From the IMG/VR virus record IMGVR_UViG_2671180460_000011, positions 1 to 9,735 of that record: a DNA stretch of 9,735 bases; one strand, written 5' to 3'. The DNA comes from a virus. Lineage: Duplodnaviria; Heunggongvirae; Uroviricota; Caudoviricetes. The notes beneath the pieces are model-generated. The model saw nothing but the letters and a program-made list of their open reading frames with translations. It made no database searches and was not told where the DNA came from. Every line of letters begins with the position of its first letter. Within the stretch, counting starts at the first letter, position 1. A program made the position numbers and the translations under genes. Shown here in pieces: positions 1 to 9,735 of this stretch.

Positions 1-252
1 TTACCATATTTCGTCACCCGCAGGGGTGGATTTACCCCAGACATCCTGCTCGCTAAGTTCCGCGGCGTTCATGTCACACTGTGCCAGCAGTTCATCAAGC
101 GAGTAGCGCCTGGAGATGGGTGTCAGAATCAGTTGGTTGTTGCTCACCTGCGCTTCCACGCTCTGCCCCGGCTGTAAGTTAAGTTCTTTCATTACGATAT
201 TGGGAATGACCATACCTGCACTGTTCCCCCATCTTTTTATGGTAATACGCAT
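1..252 (-). CDS. chpS: ChpS (ChpBI) antitoxin of the ChpB-ChpS toxin-antitoxin pair, MazE/AbrB-fold; host gene
   Basis: Translation MRITIKRWGNSAGMVIPNIVMKELNLQ...GDEIW (83 aa) matches my recollection of E. coli ChpS and resembles MazE. ATG at 250-252 (rc), GGAGG at 258-262 (rc) 5 nt upstream, stop at 1-3 (rc TAA). The ORF track's start at 258 is an in-frame GTG two codons upstream. Confidence 0.75.
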   Translation of the reverse strand: MRITIKRWGNSAGMVIPNIVMKELNLQPGQSVEAQVSNNQLILTPISRRYSLDELLAQCDMNAAELSEQDVWGKSTPAGDEIW

Positions 253-266
253 CTGCACCTCCTTAA

Positions 267-283
267 GTTATACAAAGTATAAC
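267..283. promoter_or_regulatory. Perfect 7-bp inverted repeat GTTATAC-AAA-GTATAAC just upstream of the chpS RBS; likely operator for TA autoregulation
   Basis: The palindrome is read directly from the sequence. Type II antitoxins of the MazE/ChpS family autoregulate through palindromes overlapping their promoter. Confidence 0.4.
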
Positions 284-457
284 TCACGGTGCTACAGGAA
301 ACGTTTTACCCCTGCACATTTGTGAACGCCAGCAGAGTTTTTTATGCGATTGCAGATATGGAAAGCGGCTCGGAGAGAAAAGCAAAAGATGGAAAAGTTA
401 CAAAAAAAAATCGCGAGATACATCGCATAAAACAACGCCACCCGAAGGTGACATGAA

Positions 458-480
458 GGAGGCCGAGCACACTGGCCTCC
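458..480 (+). other. GC-rich hairpin (GGAGGCC / 9-nt loop / GGCCTCC) in the host-prophage junction
   Basis: 7-bp perfect stem seen in sequence, followed on + by CTTTGATATAT (weak T-tract). Could be a host terminator remnant or part of the att region; function unknown. Confidence 0.3.
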
Positions 481-517
481 CTTTGATATATCAATTAGTT
501 ACATTAATACACATAGT

Positions 518-540
518 CTTAAGTGGGCTTATTTAGTCCT
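518..540. other. Putative attachment-site core (prophage end)
   Basis: The reverse complement reads AGGACTAAATAAGCCCACTTAAG. It shares AAATAAGCCC and TAAG with the P2 att core as I recall it (AAAAAATAAGCCCGTGTAAGGGAGATT, from memory and uncertain). It lies just downstream of the int stop, where P2 attP lies. Confidence 0.3.
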
Positions 541-543
541 ATT

Positions 544-1539
544 TTATGGGCAATATCTGGACAACTCAGCCACAGGATTAAAGCGCACAGCATCCTGTAG
601 ATAATCCGGTGCAAAATGGGCATAAGTCATCGTCTGCTGAATAGTGCTATGTCCAAGTATTCTCTGCAAAGTGATGATATTCCCACCATTAATCATGAAG
701 TGAGTGGCAAAGGTATGCCGTAAAACATGTATCGACTGCCCTTCAGGAAGATCGGGCCTCACCTTTCTGATAGCAGCTCTGACAGCTGCATAACTTGGAT
801 AAATTAAACGACCAGTGGCCTTTGTTTTAATCATGCACTCCAGTTCTGACGATATAGGTATAACGCGACGCTTCCCATTTTTGGTTTCCATAAAAATGAC
901 TTTGCCGCTAATAACATGCTCCCCCTTGATATTTGCAACCTCACTCCATCTTCCACCTGTTGCCAGACACAACAAGACTGCTTTTAATTCATCACCAGAT
1001 AACAACTCCAGTAATCGTGGAATATCTTCATGATACAAATAAGCCATTTCAGGCTGTTTGATATTAAGTTTTTTCACATCATGAAACGGATTAGCCCCAG
1101 AATATTCCTCTGCGTCAATTAGTTTTGTGAAAAAACCACTCATCATTGCGCAATAACGATTAACCGTGGATTGTTTTATTCCGCGGTTAAGCAACAATAA
1201 CCGATAATTAATTATGTTCTTACGAGTAAGTTGGTCACTGCGTGTAACATTAATACTTTCAAGATCACTAATGACCGCAGAAATACGCACTCGCTCCATC
1301 GAACCGTAAGGATGATTTTTACCGTGATACAACCACCAACAATCCAGCAACTCCCTCAGCGAGCGCCGTTCTGTTGGCTTATCAACCCAGTCTTTGTCGT
1401 GGTAATGCTGCAATACATGACGCTCATACAAAACAGCCTCACCACGAGTATCAAATCGCCGCCTGAATCTCTTTCCTTCTGATCCAGCAGGCCGCACGTC
1501 CACACAAAATTTGCCATTAGCGAGCTTCTTAATCGACAT
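544..1539 (-). CDS. int: Tyrosine recombinase / integrase, P2 Int family
   Basis: 331 aa from MSIKKLANGKFCVDVRPAGSEGKRFRRRF. The C-terminal HVLRHTFATHFMINGGNIITLQRILGHSTIQQTMTYAHFAPDYLQDAV nearly matches the P2 Int catalytic region (HxLRH box, catalytic Tyr in YAHF). ATG at 1537-1539 (rc) with GGAGGG 7 nt upstream. The ORF track's extra 12 N-terminal codons lack an RBS. Confidence 0.9.
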   Translation of the reverse strand: MSIKKLANGKFCVDVRPAGSEGKRFRRRFDTRGEAVLYERHVLQHYHDKDWVDKPTERRSLRELLDCWWLYHGKNHPYGSMERVRISAVISDLESINVTRSDQLTRKNIINYRLLLLNRGIKQSTVNRYCAMMSGFFTKLIDAEEYSGANPFHDVKKLNIKQPEMAYLYHEDIPRLLELLSGDELKAVLLCLATGGRWSEVANIKGEHVISGKVIFMETKNGKRRVIPISSELECMIKTKATGRLIYPSYAAVRAAIRKVRPDLPEGQSIHVLRHTFATHFMINGGNIITLQRILGHSTIQQTMTYAHFAPDYLQDAVRFNPVAELSRYCP

Positions 1540-1605
1540 AAGGAAGCCCTCCAATGAAAACATCATCTTGATCACTGCTCTGGGAAATAAATGCCTGGTG
1601 AACCG

Positions 1606-1899
1606 TTAACCAGTTTTCTTGCCGGAGCGGGATGATTCCACTTCGTCTTGCCCAATGTGTGCGAGAGCCGGTACAACCTGCCCGGCCTTGGGTTCAACTT
1701 CATCAAACAAAAACCAGTCGCGATATTTAGAAAATCTCGGGTGCTTGAAAAGCTTGATAGTGATCTCAAGGCCAGGAAGGTTACGACCATACTCATAACT
1801 GGTCAGAGCAGAATAAGAAATCCCAATCATATCAGCGAATTCCCGCTGAGTGAGATCTTCAGATTTACGCATGACGCGAATTTTTTGAGGAATGTCCAT
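1606..1899 (-). CDS. C: Immunity repressor, P2 C-type (short HTH repressor)
   Basis: 97 aa MDIPQKIRVMRKSEDLTQREFADMIGISYSALTSYEYGRN...PALAHIGQDEVESSRSGKKTG aligns along its length with P2 C as recalled (IVLMRKSE...YGTLSYYESGR...PALAHFGQNE...SGQKTG). ATG at 1897-1899 (rc), AGGAG 8 nt upstream. Same strand as and upstream of int, as in the P2 C-int transcript. Confidence 0.85.
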   Translation of the reverse strand: MDIPQKIRVMRKSEDLTQREFADMIGISYSALTSYEYGRNLPGLEITIKLFKHPRFSKYRDWFLFDEVEPKAGQVVPALAHIGQDEVESSRSGKKTG

Positions 1900-2013
1900 T
1901 TGACAAACTCCTACACATGTGTAGATTAATACCACATATGAACAGCAAACAAATGTTCTAAGTGGTTCCAACTAGTGCCAATTAGAAAAAGCACCAATGG
2001 CGGAGGATATCAG
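1900..2013. promoter_or_regulatory. Lysis-lysogeny switch region: candidate rightward early promoter and operator palindrome
   Basis: TTGACA at 1900-1905 (+), TAGATT at 1922-1927 (16-bp spacer). A 14-bp perfect palindrome CTACACATGTGTAG at 1911-1924 sits between these hexamers. The leftward Pc promoter is expected further right but I could not pin it confidently. Confidence 0.45.
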
Positions 2014-2439
2014 ATGCAAGAAAGCACTCAAAACGCGCCTGAGTCACTTTGCGGAACACGATGCGCTCACCTGTCAGAAATGCCAGAAGGGGAGCATCAA
2101 AAAACAGAACGCAAAGCACGTGAACGTGAAGAAATTCGACTTTCAGAAAATCCCTCGCATCTCCTGTCAAAAGAAGGATTTGCGCTGTATATCGGCAAAA
2201 CGGTTAGCGCCATTGTGAGCATGGCTAAAGCAGGGAAATTGCCAGCCGTGTATATGGCAGACCCTCTTAGGCCAGGAGGAAACGCTGAACTCTACATCAA
2301 CAGAAAAGCGTGGGATGAAGCATGTGATCGCTTGATCGAAAACGCTCCGCAGGAATGGCATGACTGGGAAAACCGCCTGTTTTTATTTAAGCCGACACAT
2401 AGCGAACGAAGCAGAACTAAAAAAGCGAGGGCCGCATGA
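2014..2439 (+). CDS. cox: Cox-like excisionase / early-promoter regulator with an unusual ~50-aa N-terminal extension
   Basis: The C-terminal ~85 aa (LSKEGFALYIGKTVSAIVSMAKAGKLPAVYMADP...AWDEACDRLIENAPQEWHDW) parallels P2 Cox (EFAKLIGKSTGAVRRMIDKGKLPVIDMTDP...AWNNGLKLAYESRPKEIRDGW). ATG at 2014 with GGAGGA at 2002-2007. Alternative in-frame start at ATG 2080 has no SD. Confidence 0.65.
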   Translation: MQESTQNAPESLCGTRCAHLSEMPEGEHQKTERKAREREEIRLSENPSHLLSKEGFALYIGKTVSAIVSMAKAGKLPAVYMADPLRPGGNAELYINRKAWDEACDRLIENAPQEWHDWENRLFLFKPTHSERSRTKKARAA

Positions 2440-2543
2440 TTGCTTTATTGTTAACACATTATTTTCGTCGCCGTTATTTCAAACACGGGCAGTTAGTGGG
2501 CTATATCACACTGCCTGAATGAGTTAAAAGAGGTAACAGTAGA

Positions 2544-2951
2544 ATGAATCACAAAAATAAAGCGCTACTGGAACGACTGGAAACCCTGAAAAACGAAAAG
2601 CCACACCAGAAGCTTTTGCTGGTTTTTCCGGGCAAACCACAGGTTGAAATCAGCATTGACTACCACGAATTACACAGAACGTTCGCTGACCTGATGGCAT
2701 TTAAATCAAAGCTTCAGAATGGCGAAGATTTGAAAAATGTTACCCTGCATCCTGATGATGAATACGGTCATTTTTGTCGAGATGGTGTCAAAGAAACGAT
2801 TGGAATGATTTTAGAACCAATATACGGCGTTGCGCTCCGTTTCCCCGCCAAAGAAATCTTTGAGCTTTATCGACAAATTTTAAGCAGTGACAACATGGTT
2901 ATTGAGGTCGGAAATGTGCCAGAGAAAATCTCCGGCACGGGAGTTAAATAA
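2544..2951 (+). CDS. Hypothetical protein (135 aa), AT-rich moron-like gene
   Basis: Complete ORF, ATG 2544 with AAAGAGG at 2527-2533. No family recognised. Visibly AT-richer than flanking phage genes. Confidence 0.55.
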   Translation: MNHKNKALLERLETLKNEKPHQKLLLVFPGKPQVEISIDYHELHRTFADLMAFKSKLQNGEDLKNVTLHPDDEYGHFCRDGVKETIGMILEPIYGVALRFPAKEIFELYRQILSSDNMVIEVGNVPEKISGTGVK

Positions 2952-3134
2952 TCACTCAGGGAAAGTCCATGTACTTGCCTGAGGATATTTTTCCAACGTG
3001 AGCTTACGCACTTCGTGCATAAGCTTACGAATGGTATTTGATGGCTCTCCTTTATTCGGAGGATTAACCGGCGCTTTCTCTAATACAGAAATTGCCGCAT
3101 TTAGCGCATCAATAACCTTTTTATCATAGGACAT
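2952..3134 (-). CDS. Hypothetical small protein (60 aa), convergent with and abutting the 135-aa gene
   Basis: ATG at 3132-3134 (rc) with AAGGA 7 nt upstream on the minus strand. Its stop (2952-2954) is immediately adjacent to the stop of the + gene (2949-2951). No family recognised. Confidence 0.4.
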   Translation of the reverse strand: MSYDKKVIDALNAAISVLEKAPVNPPNKGEPSNTIRKLMHEVRKLTLEKYPQASTWTFPE

Positions 3135-3276
3135 ATTTTATTCCTTTGTGGTTGGTTGAACACGCGCCCTTTACAGCCCCTTCAAGACTGTGGGCGGTGG
3201 AAAAATACCACAAAACCATGCGCCGGGCATGGCTAAAACCCGGCACAAATTCGCAACAGCAGCAGGATATTTTTGT

Positions 3277-3627
3277 ATGAAGCAACGACGTAATTCTTCA
3301 CAGCAGCGATTCCGCAACGGGACGGAACGCCACGCTAACCGCTTCGCTACCAGTGCATCACGTAGCAGCTCTCGCTACAGCCTGAACGAAACGCACGCAA
3401 CACCAGACGGACACGCTGTAAAACAAATCGGCGAGCATACCTGGCTGATTGAGAAAGCTGGAATCGTGGTCCACAAATGCCCGCGCAATCCGTTTACCGG
3501 AAACCGCATTTTTGCTCTGAGCAGCGGCGACAATCAGTTCGGGCAGGATTTCACATTATACGAAGCGCTTCGCACGGTTGATCGTCTGCTGCGTGGACAG
3601 AGTTTTATTAAACAGGCTGATTTATAA
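3277..3627 (+). CDS. Hypothetical phage early protein (116 aa; basic N-terminus)
   Basis: ORF open from 3190 (GTG); preferred start ATG 3277 with AGGAT at 3264-3268. Alternative ATG at 3229 has no SD. No family recognised. Confidence 0.5.
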   Translation: MKQRRNSSQQRFRNGTERHANRFATSASRSSSRYSLNETHATPDGHAVKQIGEHTWLIEKAGIVVHKCPRNPFTGNRIFALSSGDNQFGQDFTLYEALRTVDRLLRGQSFIKQADL

Positions 3628-3637
3628 CAGGTGCTTT

Positions 3638-3925
3638 ATGACTAAAGACCATACTCAAGGTGTATTTATCCGCTTTATTGATTTTCGCGGTGAACTGTTA
3701 TTACGCGCATCCGCTATTGATGGAGTGGCTCCGGCGGGGAAAAACGGAGCCGCCGAAGCCACTTACGTTTATCTGAACGGCACGCGACTGATCGTGGAAC
3801 TTCCGTACCAGACCGTACGCGAAATCATTAGCGAAGCTGAAAAGGCTCGTCAGGTTAATGGCGATAAACCCTATATCGAAATTATCTGTATGGATTCAGA
3901 AGCTGAAATCCAGAAGGCAGATTAA
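3638..3925 (+). CDS. Hypothetical phage early protein (95 aa)
   Basis: ATG 3638, 10 nt after the upstream stop, with a weak SD (AGGTG 3629-3633). Coding-like composition. No family recognised. Confidence 0.5.
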   Translation: MTKDHTQGVFIRFIDFRGELLLRASAIDGVAPAGKNGAAEATYVYLNGTRLIVELPYQTVREIISEAEKARQVNGDKPYIEIICMDSEAEIQKAD

Positions 3926-3935
3926 AGGGTGTGCG

Positions 3936-4178
3936 ATGGACAAAGAATATAAAGCTCTTGTCAACAAAGCACTTGAGCGTTTTTATTTTCGCTTAAACAC
4001 ATCAGGGGCCCAGGCAGAACACGCAGCCCATGATTCATTAGCGAGGGCAATCAGAAGCCTTTATGACGTGGCCTTTTACGCTGACGATTTGGATGCGATT
4101 AACGAACTTTCCGAACTCGTCTGCGCTGCAGAATGCGGGGATCGCATTGAACCATATAAACTGGGGAATATCGCATGA
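3936..4178 (+). CDS. Hypothetical phage early protein (80 aa)
   Basis: ATG 3936 with AAGGG at 3925-3929. Its stop TGA 4176-4178 overlaps the ATG 4175 of the next peptide gene (ATGA). Confidence 0.5.
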   Translation: MDKEYKALVNKALERFYFRLNTSGAQAEHAAHDSLARAIRSLYDVAFYADDLDAINELSELVCAAECGDRIEPYKLGNIA

Positions 4179-4312
4179 GTATATTTATGTCATGGATTGT
4201 TCTGATTATTTCGGTGGCCTGCGCAATCGGGATTATGCGAATTATTCATTCAGTGAAAAAGATTGAGCGTTTTTTTCTGACGAATAACAGCACAAATAAA
4301 ACACCAGATTAA
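4175..4312 (+). CDS. Small single-pass membrane peptide (45 aa), MSIFMSWIVLIISVACAIGIMRIIHSVKKIERFFLTNNSTNKTPD; absent from the ORF track
   Basis: Hand-translated codon by codon. ATG 4175 with GGGGA at 4163-4167 and ATGA overlap with the upstream stop. A ~19-residue hydrophobic stretch is followed by a basic tail (RIIHSVKKIER). Stop TAA 4310-4312. Confidence 0.4.
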   Translation: MSIFMSWIVLIISVACAIGIMRIIHSVKKIERFFLTNNSTNKTPD

Positions 4313-4380
4313 ATAAGAAAACGTGAAAACCATCCGAATTAGCGGAGGCATTCACACACGTAAATAATGGAGATAGAAAA

Positions 4381-4791
4381 ATGAACGCAAAAGAAAAAGG
4401 CATTGTAACTGCGCTAAAAAATATATCGAAGACCGCAAACAGAGCCATTCAGGATGCAACAAATGCAGGAATGATTGGGCCTGCCACCACAGCCATGATG
4501 ATAGCAAGAGCAACCGCCGAAGCAGCCGAAATCATCGAAAAACAGGATGCTGAACTAACGGTTCTCAAAACACAACCAACCACCAGACTGAATTTATCTG
4601 ACATTGGACACCTTATTCATATTATTGGCTCGGAGCTACAGCAATACATCATTATCGCCGAATTGCAGGACAAATACCTGATTACCCCTTACCCCATAAG
4701 AGAGTCAGAAGTTCTGACAAATCTCCGCCTGATAGAACGCACTCAGGTCGCATTCATTGATGGCACGCAACGTGCCGTATTTAACGCATAG
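4381..4791 (+). CDS. Hypothetical protein (136 aa), Ala/Thr-rich N-terminal half; AT-rich gene with its own RBS
   Basis: ATG 4381 with GGAGA at 4369-4373, preceded by a 68-bp AT-rich spacer. No family recognised. Confidence 0.55.
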   Translation: MNAKEKGIVTALKNISKTANRAIQDATNAGMIGPATTAMMIARATAEAAEIIEKQDAELTVLKTQPTTRLNLSDIGHLIHIIGSELQQYIIIAELQDKYLITPYPIRESEVLTNLRLIERTQVAFIDGTQRAVFNA

Positions 4792-4814
4792 GGCTATTGG
4801 ACAAAGAGAGCGTA

Positions 4815-5018
4815 ATGGCAATTAAGCATTTTCCCGTCGTTCGCTTTACCTCCAGAGGGCGCGAATACGAGGTCGACGAACGCCTGATTACCACTATCGA
4901 CAAACACCGTTCAGAAAAAGATGCACATCACATCTATCTCACTGACGGCACTTACTTCTGCGCCACCAACGTGGTGCAGGTGAATCTTATCAGACTGGTA
5001 CAGGAGTCACGCAGATGA
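4815..5018 (+). CDS. Hypothetical small protein (67 aa)
   Basis: ATG 4815 (MAIKHFPVVRF...) with AAGAGAG upstream. The ORF track start at 4797 is TTG. Stop TGA 5016-5018 overlaps the next start (ATGA). Confidence 0.5.
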   Translation: MAIKHFPVVRFTSRGREYEVDERLITTIDKHRSEKDAHHIYLTDGTYFCATNVVQVNLIRLVQESRR

Positions 5019-5260
5019 CCATTCTGGACTACATCGCCGCCAATCCGGGTTGTAGCGGTGGAGAAATCGCCGCAGCACTGAATACCCCAACCACAGCCAT
5101 TAATGCGGAGTTACGCCGACTCTGGCGCGACGGCTTAGTCATCAGAGAAGAACGCAAAACAGGCGGTCGGTTCTCTTACCAGGTAAACCCGATGCCGTTC
5201 GGGTGTGGCAACCCACTTACTCACATGTTTAACCAGCTACTGCAGGAAGCCAGAGCATGA
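5015..5260 (+). CDS. Small winged-helix DNA-binding protein (81 aa)
   Basis: ILDYIAANPGCSGGEIAAALNTPTTAINAELRRLWRDGLVIREERKTGGRFSY has the look of a MarR/PadR-like wHTH with a basic wing. ATG 5015 with CAGGAG at 5001-5006; ATGA coupling at both ends. Confidence 0.55.
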   Translation: MTILDYIAANPGCSGGEIAAALNTPTTAINAELRRLWRDGLVIREERKTGGRFSYQVNPMPFGCGNPLTHMFNQLLQEARA

Positions 5261-5556
5261 GCACCATCAACCACCAGGAACTACGCGAACTGGCGACTGA
5301 CCTGCAACGAATAGCAACGCATCAAAAATTACTGGCGTTTCGCGCAATGCTCTCGCCATCTGCCGTGCTGGCACTGCTGGATGAGCTGGAGCACGCCAGA
5401 ACCATGGCTCCTGCCATTCGCCTGACGCTCCATCATGAAATCGCTGATTTCTGTGCACCACTGGGTTCACCTGGCGAACCGGAAACACCGGAAGCAATGC
5501 AGCGAGAGCTGCTGCAACACATCGACAACGTTTTCGATTTTTTCCTTAACCAGTAA
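5257..5556 (+). CDS. Hypothetical phage protein (99 aa); N-terminus faintly reminiscent of Ead/Ea22-like proteins
   Basis: ATG 5257 (ATGA overlap), AGGAAG at 5244-5249. The start MSTINHQELRELATDLQ resembles the Ead/Ea22 N-terminal pattern; weak, from memory. Confidence 0.5.
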   Translation: MSTINHQELRELATDLQRIATHQKLLAFRAMLSPSAVLALLDELEHARTMAPAIRLTLHHEIADFCAPLGSPGEPETPEAMQRELLQHIDNVFDFFLNQ

Positions 5557-5567
5557 AGGACCGCGAT

Positions 5568-5771
5568 ATGAACAAAAAGACCTGGTTTCGCGCATACATG
5601 TGGGCGCTGGTATGCGTCCTCGTCTCTCTCATTCTGTATGCAGGACTACTCCCCCGAATGATTTCATCAGACAGCTCCTTCCTGGTATTGCTGGGCATTT
5701 TCATTGCCATGCTGTACCCGGCAGGCGTTGTTCGCCTTTTCAGTAAGTACATCAAGGAAATCAAACAATGA
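5568..5771 (+). CDS. Small integral membrane protein, two predicted TM helices (67 aa)
   Basis: ATG 5568 with AAAGGA at 5555-5560. Two hydrophobic segments (WALVCVLVSLILYAGLL and FLVLLGIFIAMLYPAGVV) separated by a short polar loop. Stop TGA 5769-5771 overlaps the ATG 5768 of the SPFH gene. Confidence 0.6.
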   Translation: MNKKTWFRAYMWALVCVLVSLILYAGLLPRMISSDSSFLVLLGIFIAMLYPAGVVRLFSKYIKEIKQ

Positions 5772-6598
5772 AGAAATTCAAACTCTTTCAGATTCTCCCG
5801 CTTTTTGCCGCCATCCTGCTGGTTGGTTGCGATCGCGTTGAGCCAGGTAATGTGGGCATCAAAGTCAACAAACTGGGCGACGACAAAGGCGTCGGCGAAG
5901 TGGTTGGCGTTGGCCGCTACTGGACTGGCTGGAATACCGAGGTTTACATCTTCCCGACCTTCAAACAAATGAAGACCTACGATGAGCCGTTCAGCTTCCA
6001 GATGAGTGACGGCACAACCATCGGCTATCACATCGGTGTGGCCTACAAGGTTGATCCATCCAAAGTTACTACAGTGTTTCAGACCTACCGCAAAGGCGTG
6101 GATGACATTACCGACACTGACCTGCGCCAGAAGATCGCCGATGCACTCAACCGACTGGCCAGCAAAATGACCACCGACAAATTTATCGACGGCGGGAAAT
6201 CTGAACTACTGGATGCAGCTCTTAAAGACATTCAGGAGGAAATGACACCCATCGGTATTCAGGTAATGAGCCTCTCATATGTGGGTAAGCCGGAGTACCC
6301 GTCAACCGTTATCGACAGCATTAATGCCAAAGTCACGGCAAACCAGAAAACCCTGCAACGCGAACAGGAAGTCAAGCAACGTGAAGCAGAAGCCAACATG
6401 TTGCGCGCAGAAGCTGCCGGACAGGCTGATGCCATTCGCACAAAAGCCCAGGCTGAAGCCGACGCCATTCGTTTGCGTGGTGAAGCTCTGCGCCAGAATC
6501 CCGGTGTTATGGAGCTGGAAGCGATTAACAAATGGAACGGCACGCTACCGCAATACATGACCAGTAACACCGCTGTTCCGTTTGTTCCGGTGAAGTAA
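5768..6598 (+). CDS. SPFH/band-7 (stomatin/HflK/HflC/prohibitin-like) domain lipoprotein, predicted inner-membrane anchored (276 aa)
   Basis: The N-terminus MKKFKLFQILPLFAAILLVGC-D has a signal peptide and lipobox LVGC (Cys21), with Asp at +2, the classical inner-membrane retention signal. The body has SPFH-like composition and a C-terminal Ala/Glu/Gln/Arg-rich coiled-coil (QREQEVKQREAEANMLRAEAAGQADAIRTKAQAEADAIRLRGEAL) typical of band-7 proteins. Confidence 0.8.
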   Translation: MKKFKLFQILPLFAAILLVGCDRVEPGNVGIKVNKLGDDKGVGEVVGVGRYWTGWNTEVYIFPTFKQMKTYDEPFSFQMSDGTTIGYHIGVAYKVDPSKVTTVFQTYRKGVDDITDTDLRQKIADALNRLASKMTTDKFIDGGKSELLDAALKDIQEEMTPIGIQVMSLSYVGKPEYPSTVIDSINAKVTANQKTLQREQEVKQREAEANMLRAEAAGQADAIRTKAQAEADAIRLRGEALRQNPGVMELEAINKWNGTLPQYMTSNTAVPFVPVK

Positions 6599-6605
6599 TT
6601 CAACC

Positions 6606-6627
6606 CGGCCAGTGAAACCGCTGGCCG
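6606..6627. other. Hairpin (CGGCCAG / 8-nt loop / CTGGCCG) 8 nt after the SPFH stop; no T-tract on either strand
   Basis: 7-bp perfect stem seen in sequence. Not a canonical intrinsic terminator; possibly an RNA-stability or processing element. Confidence 0.3.
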
Positions 6628-6665
6628 AAAATATAACGAATAAACAAAAAGCCAGAGGACAGAGC

Positions 6666-6812
6666 ATGCACAAAGCCTTTGAACGATGGATGCGCCAGCG
6701 TTACGGCAATCGCTATGACCTGACAAGGGATGTTGATGGCTACTACTGCCGCGAAATTGTGAAACGAATGTTTGAAGTGTGGTGTCACGCTCGCGGCCTG
6801 TACGCCGTGTAA
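6666..6812 (+). CDS. Hypothetical small protein (48 aa)
   Basis: ATG 6666 with AGAGGA at 6654-6659. The ORF track's longer version starts at a GTG (6612) inside the upstream hairpin, so I prefer 6666. No family recognised. Confidence 0.4.
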   Translation: MHKAFERWMRQRYGNRYDLTRDVDGYYCREIVKRMFEVWCHARGLYAV

Positions 6813-6951
6813 TCCATGTCACTGTCAGAAGATTAACCCATGTACACACAAAAAAACCGCTTGCCATGCCGTAATCAGTCAGGTTACATTTCCGCTGCAC
6901 CTCATAAAACGGGTGCCGGGTTTCGCAGCCTGCTGACTAGCAAAGCGCACA

Positions 6952-6971
6952 ACCGCGCCAGCGGTTTTTTT
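6952..6971 (+). terminator. Candidate Rho-independent terminator ending the long early operon
   Basis: ACCGC-GCCA-GCGGT hairpin (5-bp stem, 4-nt loop) immediately followed by T7 (6965-6971). The stem is short, so strength is uncertain. Confidence 0.45.
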
Positions 6972-7150
6972 GTGCGTACCGTATCGCCACGTCTTTTTCG
7001 CACACGAATTATGGTGGGGCGTATGGGGCCGACTTCGGTCGGGCCGGGTTCTTTGCTAGCCGGTACTGCGAACCTCGTACGTCTCGCCACCCACAGTTTC
7101 GCAGCTCTGGATGGTGAGTTTTCACAACTTACTAGCAAAGAGGCCACACC

Positions 7151-7378
7151 ATGGCAAACCGCAAACAGCGCGCATACGCTGCGCGTCGTCACATCCAGAC
7201 TGAAATCGATCGCAGACTCACCCGCGCTGCACACATCGCCTTTATCATGCAATCCAACACATTGCACAGACTCAACAGCACTATTTCAGCCGACTACTGC
7301 GCCGCTGTATTCAGCTATCTGGCGGAAGACCTCCTGTCTCTTCAGGATCTCATCCAGCAGCAAAACAAACTCCATTAA
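7151..7378 (+). CDS. Hypothetical phage protein (75 aa)
   Basis: ATG 7151 with AAGAGG at 7138-7143. No family recognised. Confidence 0.5.
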   Translation: MANRKQRAYAARRHIQTEIDRRLTRAAHIAFIMQSNTLHRLNSTISADYCAAVFSYLAEDLLSLQDLIQQQNKLH

Positions 7379-7450
7379 TTACGGTACCAGGTCTCTCCTG
7401 CACTTTGCGGCGGGAGGCCTGCGCACATCTTTAACAAAGCGAGGTGCAGC

Positions 7451-7840
7451 ATGATTGACCGTCATGACTTCGTAAAATGGGTGCGCACACAGGACACCCG
7501 TCTGGCTCCAAAACTTCAGGCAATGTTTGATCTCTATCTCCGTGCCCGTGCCAGCCAGGCACGCACCACAAAACCGGAGAACACAGACACCCTTTATTTC
7601 ACCGTGGACGACTGTTACCGCGTGGTCTTCACACCACACGGTCTGGCCCTGTACACCCTGACACCACGCAGCGACTCCCTGCTGGCGTATTACAACTCCC
7701 CGGCTTCTGTATTTGCAGCCATACTGGCGCATCGCACCGCTGGCGGGTGTGCATCGCTGAATGAATACACCGCTGAATTTAACCGCCTGTCCGCCCTCTT
7801 CTCGCAGGAGTGGCAGCGCGTGACGGGATACCAGCCATGA
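7451..7840 (+). CDS. Hypothetical phage protein (129 aa), translationally coupled to gene A
   Basis: ATG 7451 with GAGG at 7441-7444. Stop TGA 7838-7840 overlaps the ATG 7837 of A (ATGA). Confidence 0.55.
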   Translation: MIDRHDFVKWVRTQDTRLAPKLQAMFDLYLRARASQARTTKPENTDTLYFTVDDCYRVVFTPHGLALYTLTPRSDSLLAYYNSPASVFAAILAHRTAGGCASLNEYTAEFNRLSALFSQEWQRVTGYQP

Positions 7841-9735
7841 GTGAGTTTGCATGGAGCTGGAATGAACCGCAGCCAGCCATTGATCCGGACGACTTCGCGA
7901 ACTTCAGTCGGTTGCCAAAAACCGGACTGCAACGCGCCATTCGTTACTACCGCGAAGCGGACAAAAAGGCTCAGGAAGAACAGGAAGCGAAGGAAGAAGC
8001 CCTTTTCGCACAATCCGATACAGGCAAAAAACTCATGGCGTCCCTTGAGGAAGCCGGGCAACGCGAAAAACTGATAAAAAACATCATCAGTAAGCGCCAG
8101 GAAATAAAGCAAGACCCGGTGGCCCGTGCCTTTGCCAAACTGAAGGCACTTCCCGTTTATTTGCGTGCCCCCCTGAGCCGCCGCCTCTCTTTTTTGCGTA
8201 AAAAGCAAGAGTCAGACCGCCAGAAAGGGAAAAAAGCCAGTCAGGCTGACGGGTACGCGCAGGGAACGCTGCGCAAGATATTCGAACGTCTGGACCGCAC
8301 CGACCGCCGCTGGCTGACCCCGGCTTATTGCGCCCTTGCCGGACGTGAACGCCTGGACGATTTGCTGTACCTGCCGCAGCTTAACAAGCACCAGATACAG
8401 ACGCTGGCCACCATGACTGCGGCGATGTTCAGCTGCACCTTCGAAAAACTCTGCGATGGCTTTGGCGCGACTGATGGCGAGCTGACCATGGATGTAACGC
8501 TGAAGGCATATCAGATGCTGGCCCGCATGGCGTTACACCTGCACGCCATGCCGCCACATTATGACGCACTGACAACAGATAAAGACCGGAGGAACGAACC
8601 GGACACGGAGCTGCTGCCGGGCGCAATCCTTCGCCTGACCTGTGCGGAATGGTGGAAACGCAAACTGTGGCTGTTACGTTGCGAGTGGAGAGAAGAACAA
8701 CTCCGCGCCGCCTGTCTGGTTTCCAGAAAAACATCACCCTATCTGAGCCAGGACGCGTTAAGCGAGTTTCGCGCACAGCGCGAGAAAACACGCGATTTCC
8801 TGAAAAGTTTCATGCTGGAAAATGAAGACGGGTTCACGATTGATCTCGAGACGGTGTATTACGCGGGAGTAAGTAACCCGGTTCACCGTAAGGCAGAAAT
8901 GATGGCCACCATGAAGGGACTGGAACTTCTGGCCGAAGCCCGTGGCGACAGAGCGGTGTTTCTGACCGTCACCTGCCCGTCAAAATACCACGCAACAACG
9001 GAGAACGGTCATCCGAACCCCAAATGGAACGGGGCCACCATGCGCGATTCCAGCGATTACCTGGTTAACACGTTTTTTAAGGCGGTCCGCAAAAAACTGA
9101 ACCGCGACGGCCTGCGCTGGTATGGCATTCGCACGGTGGAGCCTCACCATGACGGCACCGTGCACTGGCACATGATGGTCTTTGCACATCCGGAAGAAAT
9201 CGACAGCATCGTGGACATCACCCGTGATATTGCCATTCGCGAAGACCGCCACGAGCTGGGCAATGACATAACTCCGCGCTTTAAGGCAGAGTACGTCGAC
9301 GGTTCGAAAGGTACGCCGACCAGCTACATCGCCACCTACATCGGAAAGAACCTGGACAGCCGCGCCGTGGATGGCATTGACCCGAAAACAGGCAAACCGC
9401 GCATCGACGACGAATCAGGAAAGACGATGGCAGAAAGCGTGGAACGCGCCATCGGCTGGGCGCGCCTTCACCGGGTCCGCCAGTTCCAGTTCTTTGGCAT
9501 CCCCTCCCGTCAGGTATGGCGTGAACTGCGCCGCCTTGCCTGTCAGATGGCACGTAACCCACAGGGACCGCAACGTCTGGAAAATGACGCAATGGATGCG
9601 GTTCTTGCTGCCGCTGATGCCGGATGTTTTGCCACCTACATAGAGAAACAGGGCGGCGTGCTTGTTCCACGCAAAGACTACCTGATTCGCACCGCCTACG
9701 ACCTCGCAGATGAGCTGAACGATTACGGCGAACAG
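7837..9735 (+). CDS. A: Rolling-circle replication initiator endonuclease, P2 gpA family; 3' end lies beyond the window
   Basis: Frame open from ATG 7837 to the window end (633 codons); I checked it codon by codon. Absent from the ORF track, presumably because no stop lies in the window. Contains the HUH-type motif EPHHDGTVHWHMMVF (HWH at 9162-9170). Its position as last gene of the early operon fits P2 A. Confidence 0.85.
   Translation, partial: MSEFAWSWNEPQPAIDPDDFANFSRLPKTGLQRAIRYYREADKKAQEEQEAKEEALFAQSDTGKKLMASLEEAGQREKLIKNIISKRQEIKQDPVARAFAKLKALPVYLRAPLSRRLSFLRKKQESDRQKGKKASQADGYAQGTLRKIFERLDRTDRRWLTPAYCALAGRERLDDLLYLPQLNKHQIQTLATMTAAMFSCTFEKLCDGFGATDGELTMDVTLKAYQMLARMALHLHAMPPHYDALTTDKDRRNEPDTELLPGAILRLTCAEWWKRKLWLLRCEWREEQLRAACLVSRKTSPYLSQDALSEFRAQREKTRDFLKSFMLENEDGFTIDLETVYYAGVSNPVHRKAEMMATMKGLELLAEARGDRAVFLTVTCPSKYHATTENGHPNPKWNGATMRDSSDYLVNTFFKAVRKKLNRDGLRWYGIRTVEPHHDGTVHWHMMVFAHPEEIDSIVDITRDIAIREDRHELGNDITPRFKAEYVDGSKGTPTSYIATYIGKNLDSRAVDGIDPKTGKPRIDDESGKTMAESVERAIGWARLHRVRQFQFFGIPSRQVWRELRRLACQMARNPQGPQRLENDAMDAVLAAADAGCFATYIEKQGGVLVPRKDYLIRTAYDLADELNDYGEQ

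Follow-up and report, generated by a model that had tools for sequence, protein, structure and literature searches.

An optional cassette of two convergent genes with a portable promoter-like leader between cox and DUF4761 in P2-family prophages

What are the two small genes that meet tail to tail directly behind cox in this prophage, are they cargo, and how would they be expressed? The stretch of DNA analysed here (9,735 nucleotides, positions 1 to 9,735 of IMG/VR virus record IMGVR_UViG_2671180460_000011, hereafter the window) covers the left end of a P88-like prophage (Xuanwuvirus, Peduoviridae) of the P2 family, whose integration site adjoins the chromosomal toxin-antitoxin genes chpS/chpB (MazE/PemK). 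A sequence-only reading had singled out positions 2440 to 3276 as an AT-rich insert of two convergent genes, which it took for horizontally acquired cargo, possibly a lysogenic-conversion or defence/exclusion pair, with the minus-strand gene likely expressed in the lysogen and silenced during lytic growth. We call the plus-strand gene A and the minus-strand gene B; the features that bear on the argument are as follows.

1-258, minus strand: chpS, left neighbour of the prophage
544-1575, minus strand: integrase (int)
about 1609-1896, minus strand: C-type repressor, HTH_3 (Pfam)
1900-1927, plus strand: candidate early promoter Pe, TTGACA-16-TAGATT, 10 of 12 matches in a consensus scan
2014-2439, plus strand: cox, the left flank (Pfam Phage_Cox, 5e-28; aligns with P88 gp03)
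2440-2543, plus strand: cox-A spacer, with GAGG at 2530-2533 (ribosome-binding site of A) and a weak hairpin at about 2486-2517
2544-2951, plus strand: gene A, 135 aa, ATG start
2952-3134, minus strand: gene B, 60 aa, ATG start
3135-3196, minus strand: predicted 5' UTR of B, with hairpin, CA-rich stretch and SD
3202-3210, minus strand: candidate extended -10 element for B, TGGTATTTT, with the conserved TGnTAnnnT
3219-3247, no strand assigned: inverted repeat IR1, TGCGCCGGGC-N9-CCCGGCACA on the plus strand, directly upstream of the -10 element
3277-3627, plus strand: DUF4761 gene, the right flank (Pfam DUF4761, 1.6e-69)

The anatomy was read correctly from the letters: the coordinates, strands and lengths of A and B are exact, their stop codons abut (TAA against TCA), A lies directly downstream of a gene that is indeed cox, both genes are preceded by SD sequences (GAGG about 10 nt before A; AAGGA, minus strand, 3146-3142, 7 nt before B), and a simple scan found no terminator between them. 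Since the DUF4761 start codon lies at 3277, the end at 3276 is also the true right edge of the segment. Downstream of DUF4761 follow DUF4754, a MarR-like gene, an SPFH lipoprotein gene, the RNAs isrK and C4, the gene of a derepression protein and finally the beginning of gpA. In the P2 switch the early promoter lies between the C repressor and cox, a layout that the position of Pe between the HTH_3 gene and cox matches; from this candidate promoter cox, gene A and the early genes behind them would be transcribed. The segment recurs at 99.9% identity, with identical A and B proteins, in a draft E. coli genome (L021). The claim of AT-richness held in part. At 42.7% GC (A 41.9, B 42.1) the insert does lie below cox (48.6), DUF4761 (about 52) and the whole window (49.5), but the difference is modest, and int (42.7) and orf136 (44.8) are as AT-rich as the insert. 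Because the integrase and another early gene equal it, composition is a weak argument for acquired cargo.

Phage P88 has a gap of 37 bp between cox and DUF4761, and among 5426 complete E. coli genomes about 1393 carry the DUF4761 gene, two carry A and one carries A and B together. A tblastn search of the phages in the GenBank collection returned neither A nor B. The segment is thus missing from P88 and from almost every related E. coli prophage, as the cargo proposal had anticipated. At least seven alternative gene sets occupy the same position, including a 202-aa variant of A with an ECs1072-family gene (L003), a 162-aa variant of A with a 78-aa gene (L008), a 148-aa variant of A followed by a 117-aa plus-strand gene with no minus-strand gene (L009), a 117-aa plus-strand gene with a 155-aa minus-strand gene (L046, L056), and further sets in L057-L059. 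The segment is optional accessory cargo at a minor variable site between cox and DUF4761. Described moron positions in P2-like phages are the gpA-gpQ interval (old/tin) and the G-FI interval (Z/fun or neaT) (PMC9122126, PMC3573123, PMC13586616), and a 2026 survey placed 8% of the defence systems of P2-like prophages between int and gpA (PMC13586616); in the literature we found no description of the cox-DUF4761 site in particular.

Loci L010, L016, L021 and L022 also show near-identical cassettes in prophages that are integrated elsewhere (dmsA, glutaminase, prpC side) and that have other cox and C types. It follows that the cassette passes from one immunity or integration type to another.

Neither protein could be assigned to a described family: searches of both A and B against Pfam, PHROGs, PADLOC, NCBIfam and PDB sequence profiles gave no match (PDB: nothing below E = 0.1), in line with the first impression from the translations. 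Gene A (pI 6.3, GRAVY -0.40) forms a family of 38 protein clusters in a database of 5.8 billion proteins, all in enterobacterial P2-like prophages, with hosts confined to Escherichia, Salmonella, Citrobacter or Yersinia. A profile searched against 1.84 billion representatives brought only four more real relatives, at 24-30% identity (P0038, P0040, P0044, P0045), and scanning the GTDB species representatives yielded just a single additional locus, from E. albertii. Across eight lineages the dN/dS of A is 0.08-0.31. A core of about 115 residues is conserved, whereas the C-terminal tail has at least four forms, which differ according to the gene downstream and give lengths of 135, 148, 162-173 and 202 aa. 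AlphaFold2 modelling of A gave a pLDDT of 51.6 from 18 sequences, and a pLDDT of 62.3 with a pTM of 0.61 from 23 sequences that included remote homologues; a fold search with the model returned no fold relative. No HTH or other DNA-binding signature was found in A (Pfam, AF2 model), nor any toxin-like domain (Pfam, PADLOC). Nor is A a conserved core early gene of the family with a known function, a possibility that the sequence-only reading had named against itself.

Several candidates around A were discarded. The gene tables of several loci lack A, which raised the idea of a pseudogene, but tblastn finds A intact everywhere, so that the missing calls are a gene-table artefact. SEN5_33 and the 142-aa protein of L065 gave no hhalign signal as homologues of A. 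The 136-aa protein of L090 is weakly similar to it (E = 0.002, collinear).

For B the prior question is whether a gene is there at all. The window holds 80 ORFs of at least 40 aa, so a 60-codon ORF is by itself within chance, and one frame antisense to B shows a similarly low apparent dN/dS; a doubter could thus hold that the 60-aa ORF is spurious and that A alone, or neither, is a gene. Low apparent dN/dS in an antisense frame is a known artefact where wobble positions coincide, and the 43-aa ORF antisense to B is broken by stop codons in two lineages (L005, L007). The start, stop and SD of B are the same, and the ORF is intact, in every locus fetched; against the Yersinia copy dN/dS is 0.12-0.14 at a dS of about 0.9-1.3; homologues at 32-38% identity occupy the same position; and B has a RefSeq entry (WP_057698146.1). 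We conclude from this conservation (intact loci, dN/dS, broken antisense ORF) that B is a real gene, and consider a spurious ORF scarcely credible. Both ORFs are genuine, with dN/dS values of 0.1-0.3, and the lack of conservation that had been feared for the shorter one was not seen. The family comprises five protein clusters at 75-100% identity, one of them in Yersinia enterocolitica, with remote homologues in L060 (38%), L061 (32%) and SEN5_34 (phrog_35031, hhalign probability 92%), to which an HMM adds others in L065, L090 and L106. The protein is basic (pI 9.1), hydrophilic and soluble (GRAVY -0.60), and its sequence reads as two helices joined by a proline-rich loop (PP), with a conserved KYP motif near the C-terminus.

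The L007 allele has an A protein 92% identical to that of the window and a B protein only 75% identical, with a mosaic second helix, which shows recombination inside the locus. In B codons 33-48, i.e. the second helix, two allele types exist, KLMHEVRKLTLEKYP and QLANDLRTLALRKYP, setting L007 and L006 apart from the window, and the second type resembles the remote L060 allele; the adjoining A is 92% identical. Such a pattern is indicative of mosaicism within the gene or of diversifying selection on the second helix (dN/dS 0.56).

How B would be expressed is suggested by the DNA in front of it. About 105 nt upstream of B are almost invariant across E. coli, Citrobacter and Yersinia, where coding DNA is about 75% identical. 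When viral contigs and E. coli genomes were scanned for the pattern, about 48 different versions of this leader came to light, in front of about 12 unrelated families of small cargo (27-158 aa), and every minus-strand cargo gene has in common an inverted repeat, TGnTAnnnT, a 5' hairpin and an SD. The parts come in a set order, namely (T)GCCGGG-N10-12-CCCGGCGC, an optional TGGTTTTG, TGnTAnnnT, the hairpin in long-form leaders, a CA-rich stretch, the SD and the start codon. TGnTAnnnT is found in all of the roughly 48 variants, and also in the divergent L061 (TGCTATGTT) and in L009, in which the leader is kept and only a 4-codon remnant lies behind it. The -10 hexamer varies at positions 3-5 alone (TATTTT, TAATTT, TATTCT, TAGTTT, TAGATT, TAATGT, TATCGT), as is characteristic of a sigma-70 extended -10 element, and TGGTATTTT (minus strand, 3210 to 3202) is accordingly a candidate extended -10 promoter of B. 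Its hexamer is weak (TATTTT, four of six matches), and a simple consensus promoter scan did not list the element. A nested GC-rich hairpin follows (minus strand, 3196 to 3165, -16.7 kcal/mol), then the CA-rich stretch and the SD; in long-form leaders of other cargo the shape of this hairpin is constant and its sequence variable. A transcription start about 7 nt past the -10 element would put the hairpin at the 5' end of the mRNA, a common stabilising arrangement. The element is not tied to the cox-DUF4761 position, since in SEN5 it lies between C and cox, and in vB_YenM_42.18 it precedes gpB.

The inverted repeat IR1 is nearly invariant from E. coli to Yersinia and is found with every cargo type and immunity type, independently of A. 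Its minus-strand form is a strong hairpin (-23 kcal/mol, z = -3.5) with a U-rich tract behind it, which might shield the promoter against read-through in the leftward direction. An operator function over the -35 region is another possibility, or transcription could start further upstream and be attenuated at IR1. Rfam gave no match with E <=1 in 2440-3276, the matches in the window being isrK and C4 at 6897-7094. Judged by eye, the spacing or conserved bases of IR1 do not fit a CRP, LexA, sigma-54 or Ogr/Delta (TGT-N12-ACA) site. A small RNA ending at IR1 and antisense to the ribosome-binding site of the next gene was dismissed, as the upstream sequences differ by context and hold no conserved promoter, and a long-range pairing of UUUUGUGGU with ACCACAAAG in the first fold was set aside as probably lying upstream of the transcription start.

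The SD region reads ACAAGGA(U/G) in many cargo leaders (L063, L075, L079, L081, L086, L093 and others) and ACAAAGGAA at 3140-3150 of the window. This is close to the CsrA-binding consensus, and post-transcriptional control would be possible.

In our view the segment is somewhat more likely than not an accessory cassette of the moron type, made up of two transcription units under opposite regulation, at a previously undescribed site. Its anatomy, its optional occurrence, the selection on both proteins and the conservation of the promoter-leader are direct observations. Its expression timing and transcriptional interference we infer as follows. Gene A, without a promoter of its own, would be read together with cox from Pe, and its product would hence appear only after infection or induction. 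Gene B would be read leftwards from the sigma-70 extended -10 element, as an mRNA beginning with a stabilising 5' hairpin, and its product would be present in the lysogen, where the C repressor prevents firing of Pe. Because no terminator separates the genes, each transcript would run antisense into the other: once Pe fires, convergent transcription and antisense pairing would silence B, and in the lysogen the B transcript would damp leaky expression of A and cox. The promoter-like element on the minus strand, which faces the early operon, fits the earlier proposal of expression in the lysogen and interference during lytic growth. As to function, we would guess B to be a small cytoplasmic protein that aids the lysogen, by exclusion of phages or satellites or by modulation of the host, and A to be a dispensable early-lytic helper. 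A search of PADLOC-DB v2 with A, B, the 202-aa variant of A, the 78-aa protein, phrog_9021, the 2TM protein and other cargo gave sub-threshold noise only, and since no cargo matches a defence model, the idea of a benefit to the lysogen is without homology support.

A finding that counts against two independent units is the recurrence of the A-B linkage in at least three to four deep lineages, which hints at coupling. A and B might then form a coupled antagonistic pair, in which A, an effector of early lytic growth, damages the cell or a competitor and B, as protein, antisense 3' tail or both, is an antidote or modulator made in the lysogen that neutralises leaky A, an arrangement resembling addiction or abortive infection. 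The convergent layout after cox is kept in relatives at 24-38% identity: in L060 and L061 a remote A directly follows cox and is met by a convergent B homologue, with stops that abut or overlap by 4 nt, and L090, where a B homologue lies beside the A-like 136-aa protein, is probably a further instance of the adjacency. Moreover, A is present in 32 of the 37 B-bearing loci, many of them near-duplicates, and the tail forms of A (135, 148, 162-173 and 202 aa) change with the minus-strand partner, though recombination breakpoints would explain this co-variation as well. Both genes are nevertheless found in other company. B adjoins an unrelated 158-aa gene, between C and cox, in the Salmonella phages SEN4/5 and an unrelated 142-aa gene in L065 and L106. 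A is also found with ECs1072-family partners (6 of 11 loci) and with the 78-aa partner (5 of 15 loci), and in L009 lacks a minus-strand gene altogether. The word "pair" is therefore apt in that the linkage is frequent, but it is not obligatory. In addition, A is intact wherever examined and yielded no toxin-like domain, the two genes are not co-transcribed as those of a type II toxin-antitoxin system are, and B, a hydrophilic protein, exceeds the length of a type I toxin. On this evidence a coupled pair seems to us rather unlikely.

The leader could also be what matters, with the leftward promoter acting as a lysis-lysogeny switch device whose transcript runs antisense through A, cox and possibly C and int, much as lambda OOP/PRE or 186 pE do; IR1 would then be bound by an activator or a repressor over the -35 region, and the cargo would be secondary. 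The promoter-leader is far more conserved than the cargo and persists in L009 in front of a mere 4-codon remnant, and a simple scan of the minus strand of 1550-3700 found no terminator-like sites, so that none is predicted between B and C/int. The centre of IR1 lies at about -38 from the predicted start, a placement that the CII sites of phage 186 at pE resemble. Furthermore, A is placed like cII of lambda and 186, and the B transcript would overlap the 3' end of A as OOP overlaps cII, a positional analogy (PMC7067206, PMC3448106). Yet more than 98% of related prophages, the viable P88 among them, are without the element, which elsewhere accompanies unrelated immunity types and other positions (SEN5, vB_YenM_42.18); A is without a DNA-binding signature; and untranslated antisense RNA past B would probably be stopped by Rho. 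The cargo ORFs are, moreover, under purifying selection, and so the cargo proteins matter. We consider a switch device improbable, and retain the moron-type cassette with two oppositely regulated units as the preferred reading.

Such a cassette is rare and uncharacterised, and in kind it belongs with the prophage morons. Like the morons and hotspots of P2 (old/tin, Z/fun, neaT) it consists of optional genes in a fixed slot that are swapped between close relatives and often lie opposite to the flanking phage genes; regulatory signals of their own would be a further common trait. It differs in its slot, which is inside the early operon between cox and DUF4761 and outside the described positions, and in its tiny cargo without a defence-model match, its one shared portable promoter-leader and its want of a terminator. 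Set against Hendrix's definition of a moron, the segment is absent from collinear relatives (37 bp in P88; A in 2 of 5426 genomes) and deviates in base composition, modestly and no more than int does; B has a leader with TGnTAnnnT that was missed by the consensus scan, and A has no promoter of its own; and where a classical moron carries its own terminator, none lies between A and B or downstream of B, although SEN5 has a hairpin after its B homologue. The P2 defence hotspot that Rousset et al. reportedly described in 2022, between gpA and gpQ next to cos, is not matched here, since the locus lies upstream of gpA, within the int-gpA interval.

Likeness to the cII modules (lambda cII/OOP, 186 cII-pE) is by analogy of position and of the inverted repeat only. 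Gene A is the first gene after a cro/apl/cox-type regulator, a convergent transcript would overlap its 3' end, and a candidate leftward promoter lies inside the early lytic operon with an inverted repeat over the -35 region; here, however, A has neither an HTH nor any resemblance to CII, what the leftward transcript would encode is a conserved protein, and the element is optional and occurs without A. Toxin-antitoxin systems are likewise small two-gene cassettes on mobile elements, and the overlapping 3' ends with their antisense potential recall type I. Unlike in type II systems, the genes are convergent and not co-transcribed, and no toxin or antitoxin fold was found (Pfam, NCBIfam, PADLOC, PDB); unlike in type I systems, there is no hydrophobic toxin peptide, going by the GRAVY values of B and A, though an antisense overlap would be possible. 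The partners, too, are exchangeable. Genes antisense to lytic operons with a promoter of their own are typical accessory loci of prophages (PMC7067206). BTP1 STnc6030 and ST64B STMMW_20121, for example, are independently transcribed units antisense to lytic genes, and STnc6030 excludes superinfecting phage by antisense action (PMC7067206). The B unit would be alike in being independently transcribed, antisense to prophage lytic genes and on in lysogeny; expression and phenotype were established there by transcriptomics and phenotype, whereas here both are predicted, and B is protein-coding.

A bolder proposal, which we would call unlikely at present, is that the cox site with its portable leader is a third expression platform of the P2 family, dedicated to small proteins made in the lysogen for conflict between phages or between phages and satellites, in which B and the antisense transcript hold the early-lytic effector A in check. 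About one E. coli genome in four has a P2-like prophage, and several new defence systems have come from the two hotspots known so far. If the proposal is true, A and B would be a new two-gene system coupled by convergent transcription and not by an operon, and a third slot, inside the early operon, would offer compact and easily cloned candidates for exclusion, anti-satellite and host-modulating functions. Because the portable leader is recognisable, the site and its roughly 12 families of small unannotated proteins are directly testable, and the leader motif helps annotators to find minus-strand genes that pipelines have missed or placed on the wrong strand.

Several such cases were noted. 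In L064 2334-2999 (gp08 of Yersinia phage vB_YenM_42.18) and L054 3173-3829 the annotated 221-aa plus-strand gene is probably spurious, and the leader points to a minus-strand 39-aa acidic peptide followed by a 156-aa protein with two TM segments (phrog_6315). In L059 2275-2470 (E. coli CFSAN051542) the leader stands before an unannotated 95-aa minus-strand ORF with a GTG start, and the strand of the annotated 87-aa gene at L058 2158-2421 is doubtful.

Two further features of the window lie outside the segment. At 5768-6598 (plus strand) is an SPFH/Band-7 lipoprotein gene, about 91-92% identical to genes of phiP27 and Stx2-converting phages and annotated as "serine protease" in some records; it is a moron common to unrelated phage families. 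The isrK RNA (6897-6971, plus strand, Rfam 65.5 bits) and the C4 antisense RNA (7007-7094, plus strand, 79.9 bits) lie just before the gene of the derepression protein (ORF 7151-7378), and together they are a C4-antirepressor immunity module in the style of P1, P7 and P4 inside a P2-family prophage.
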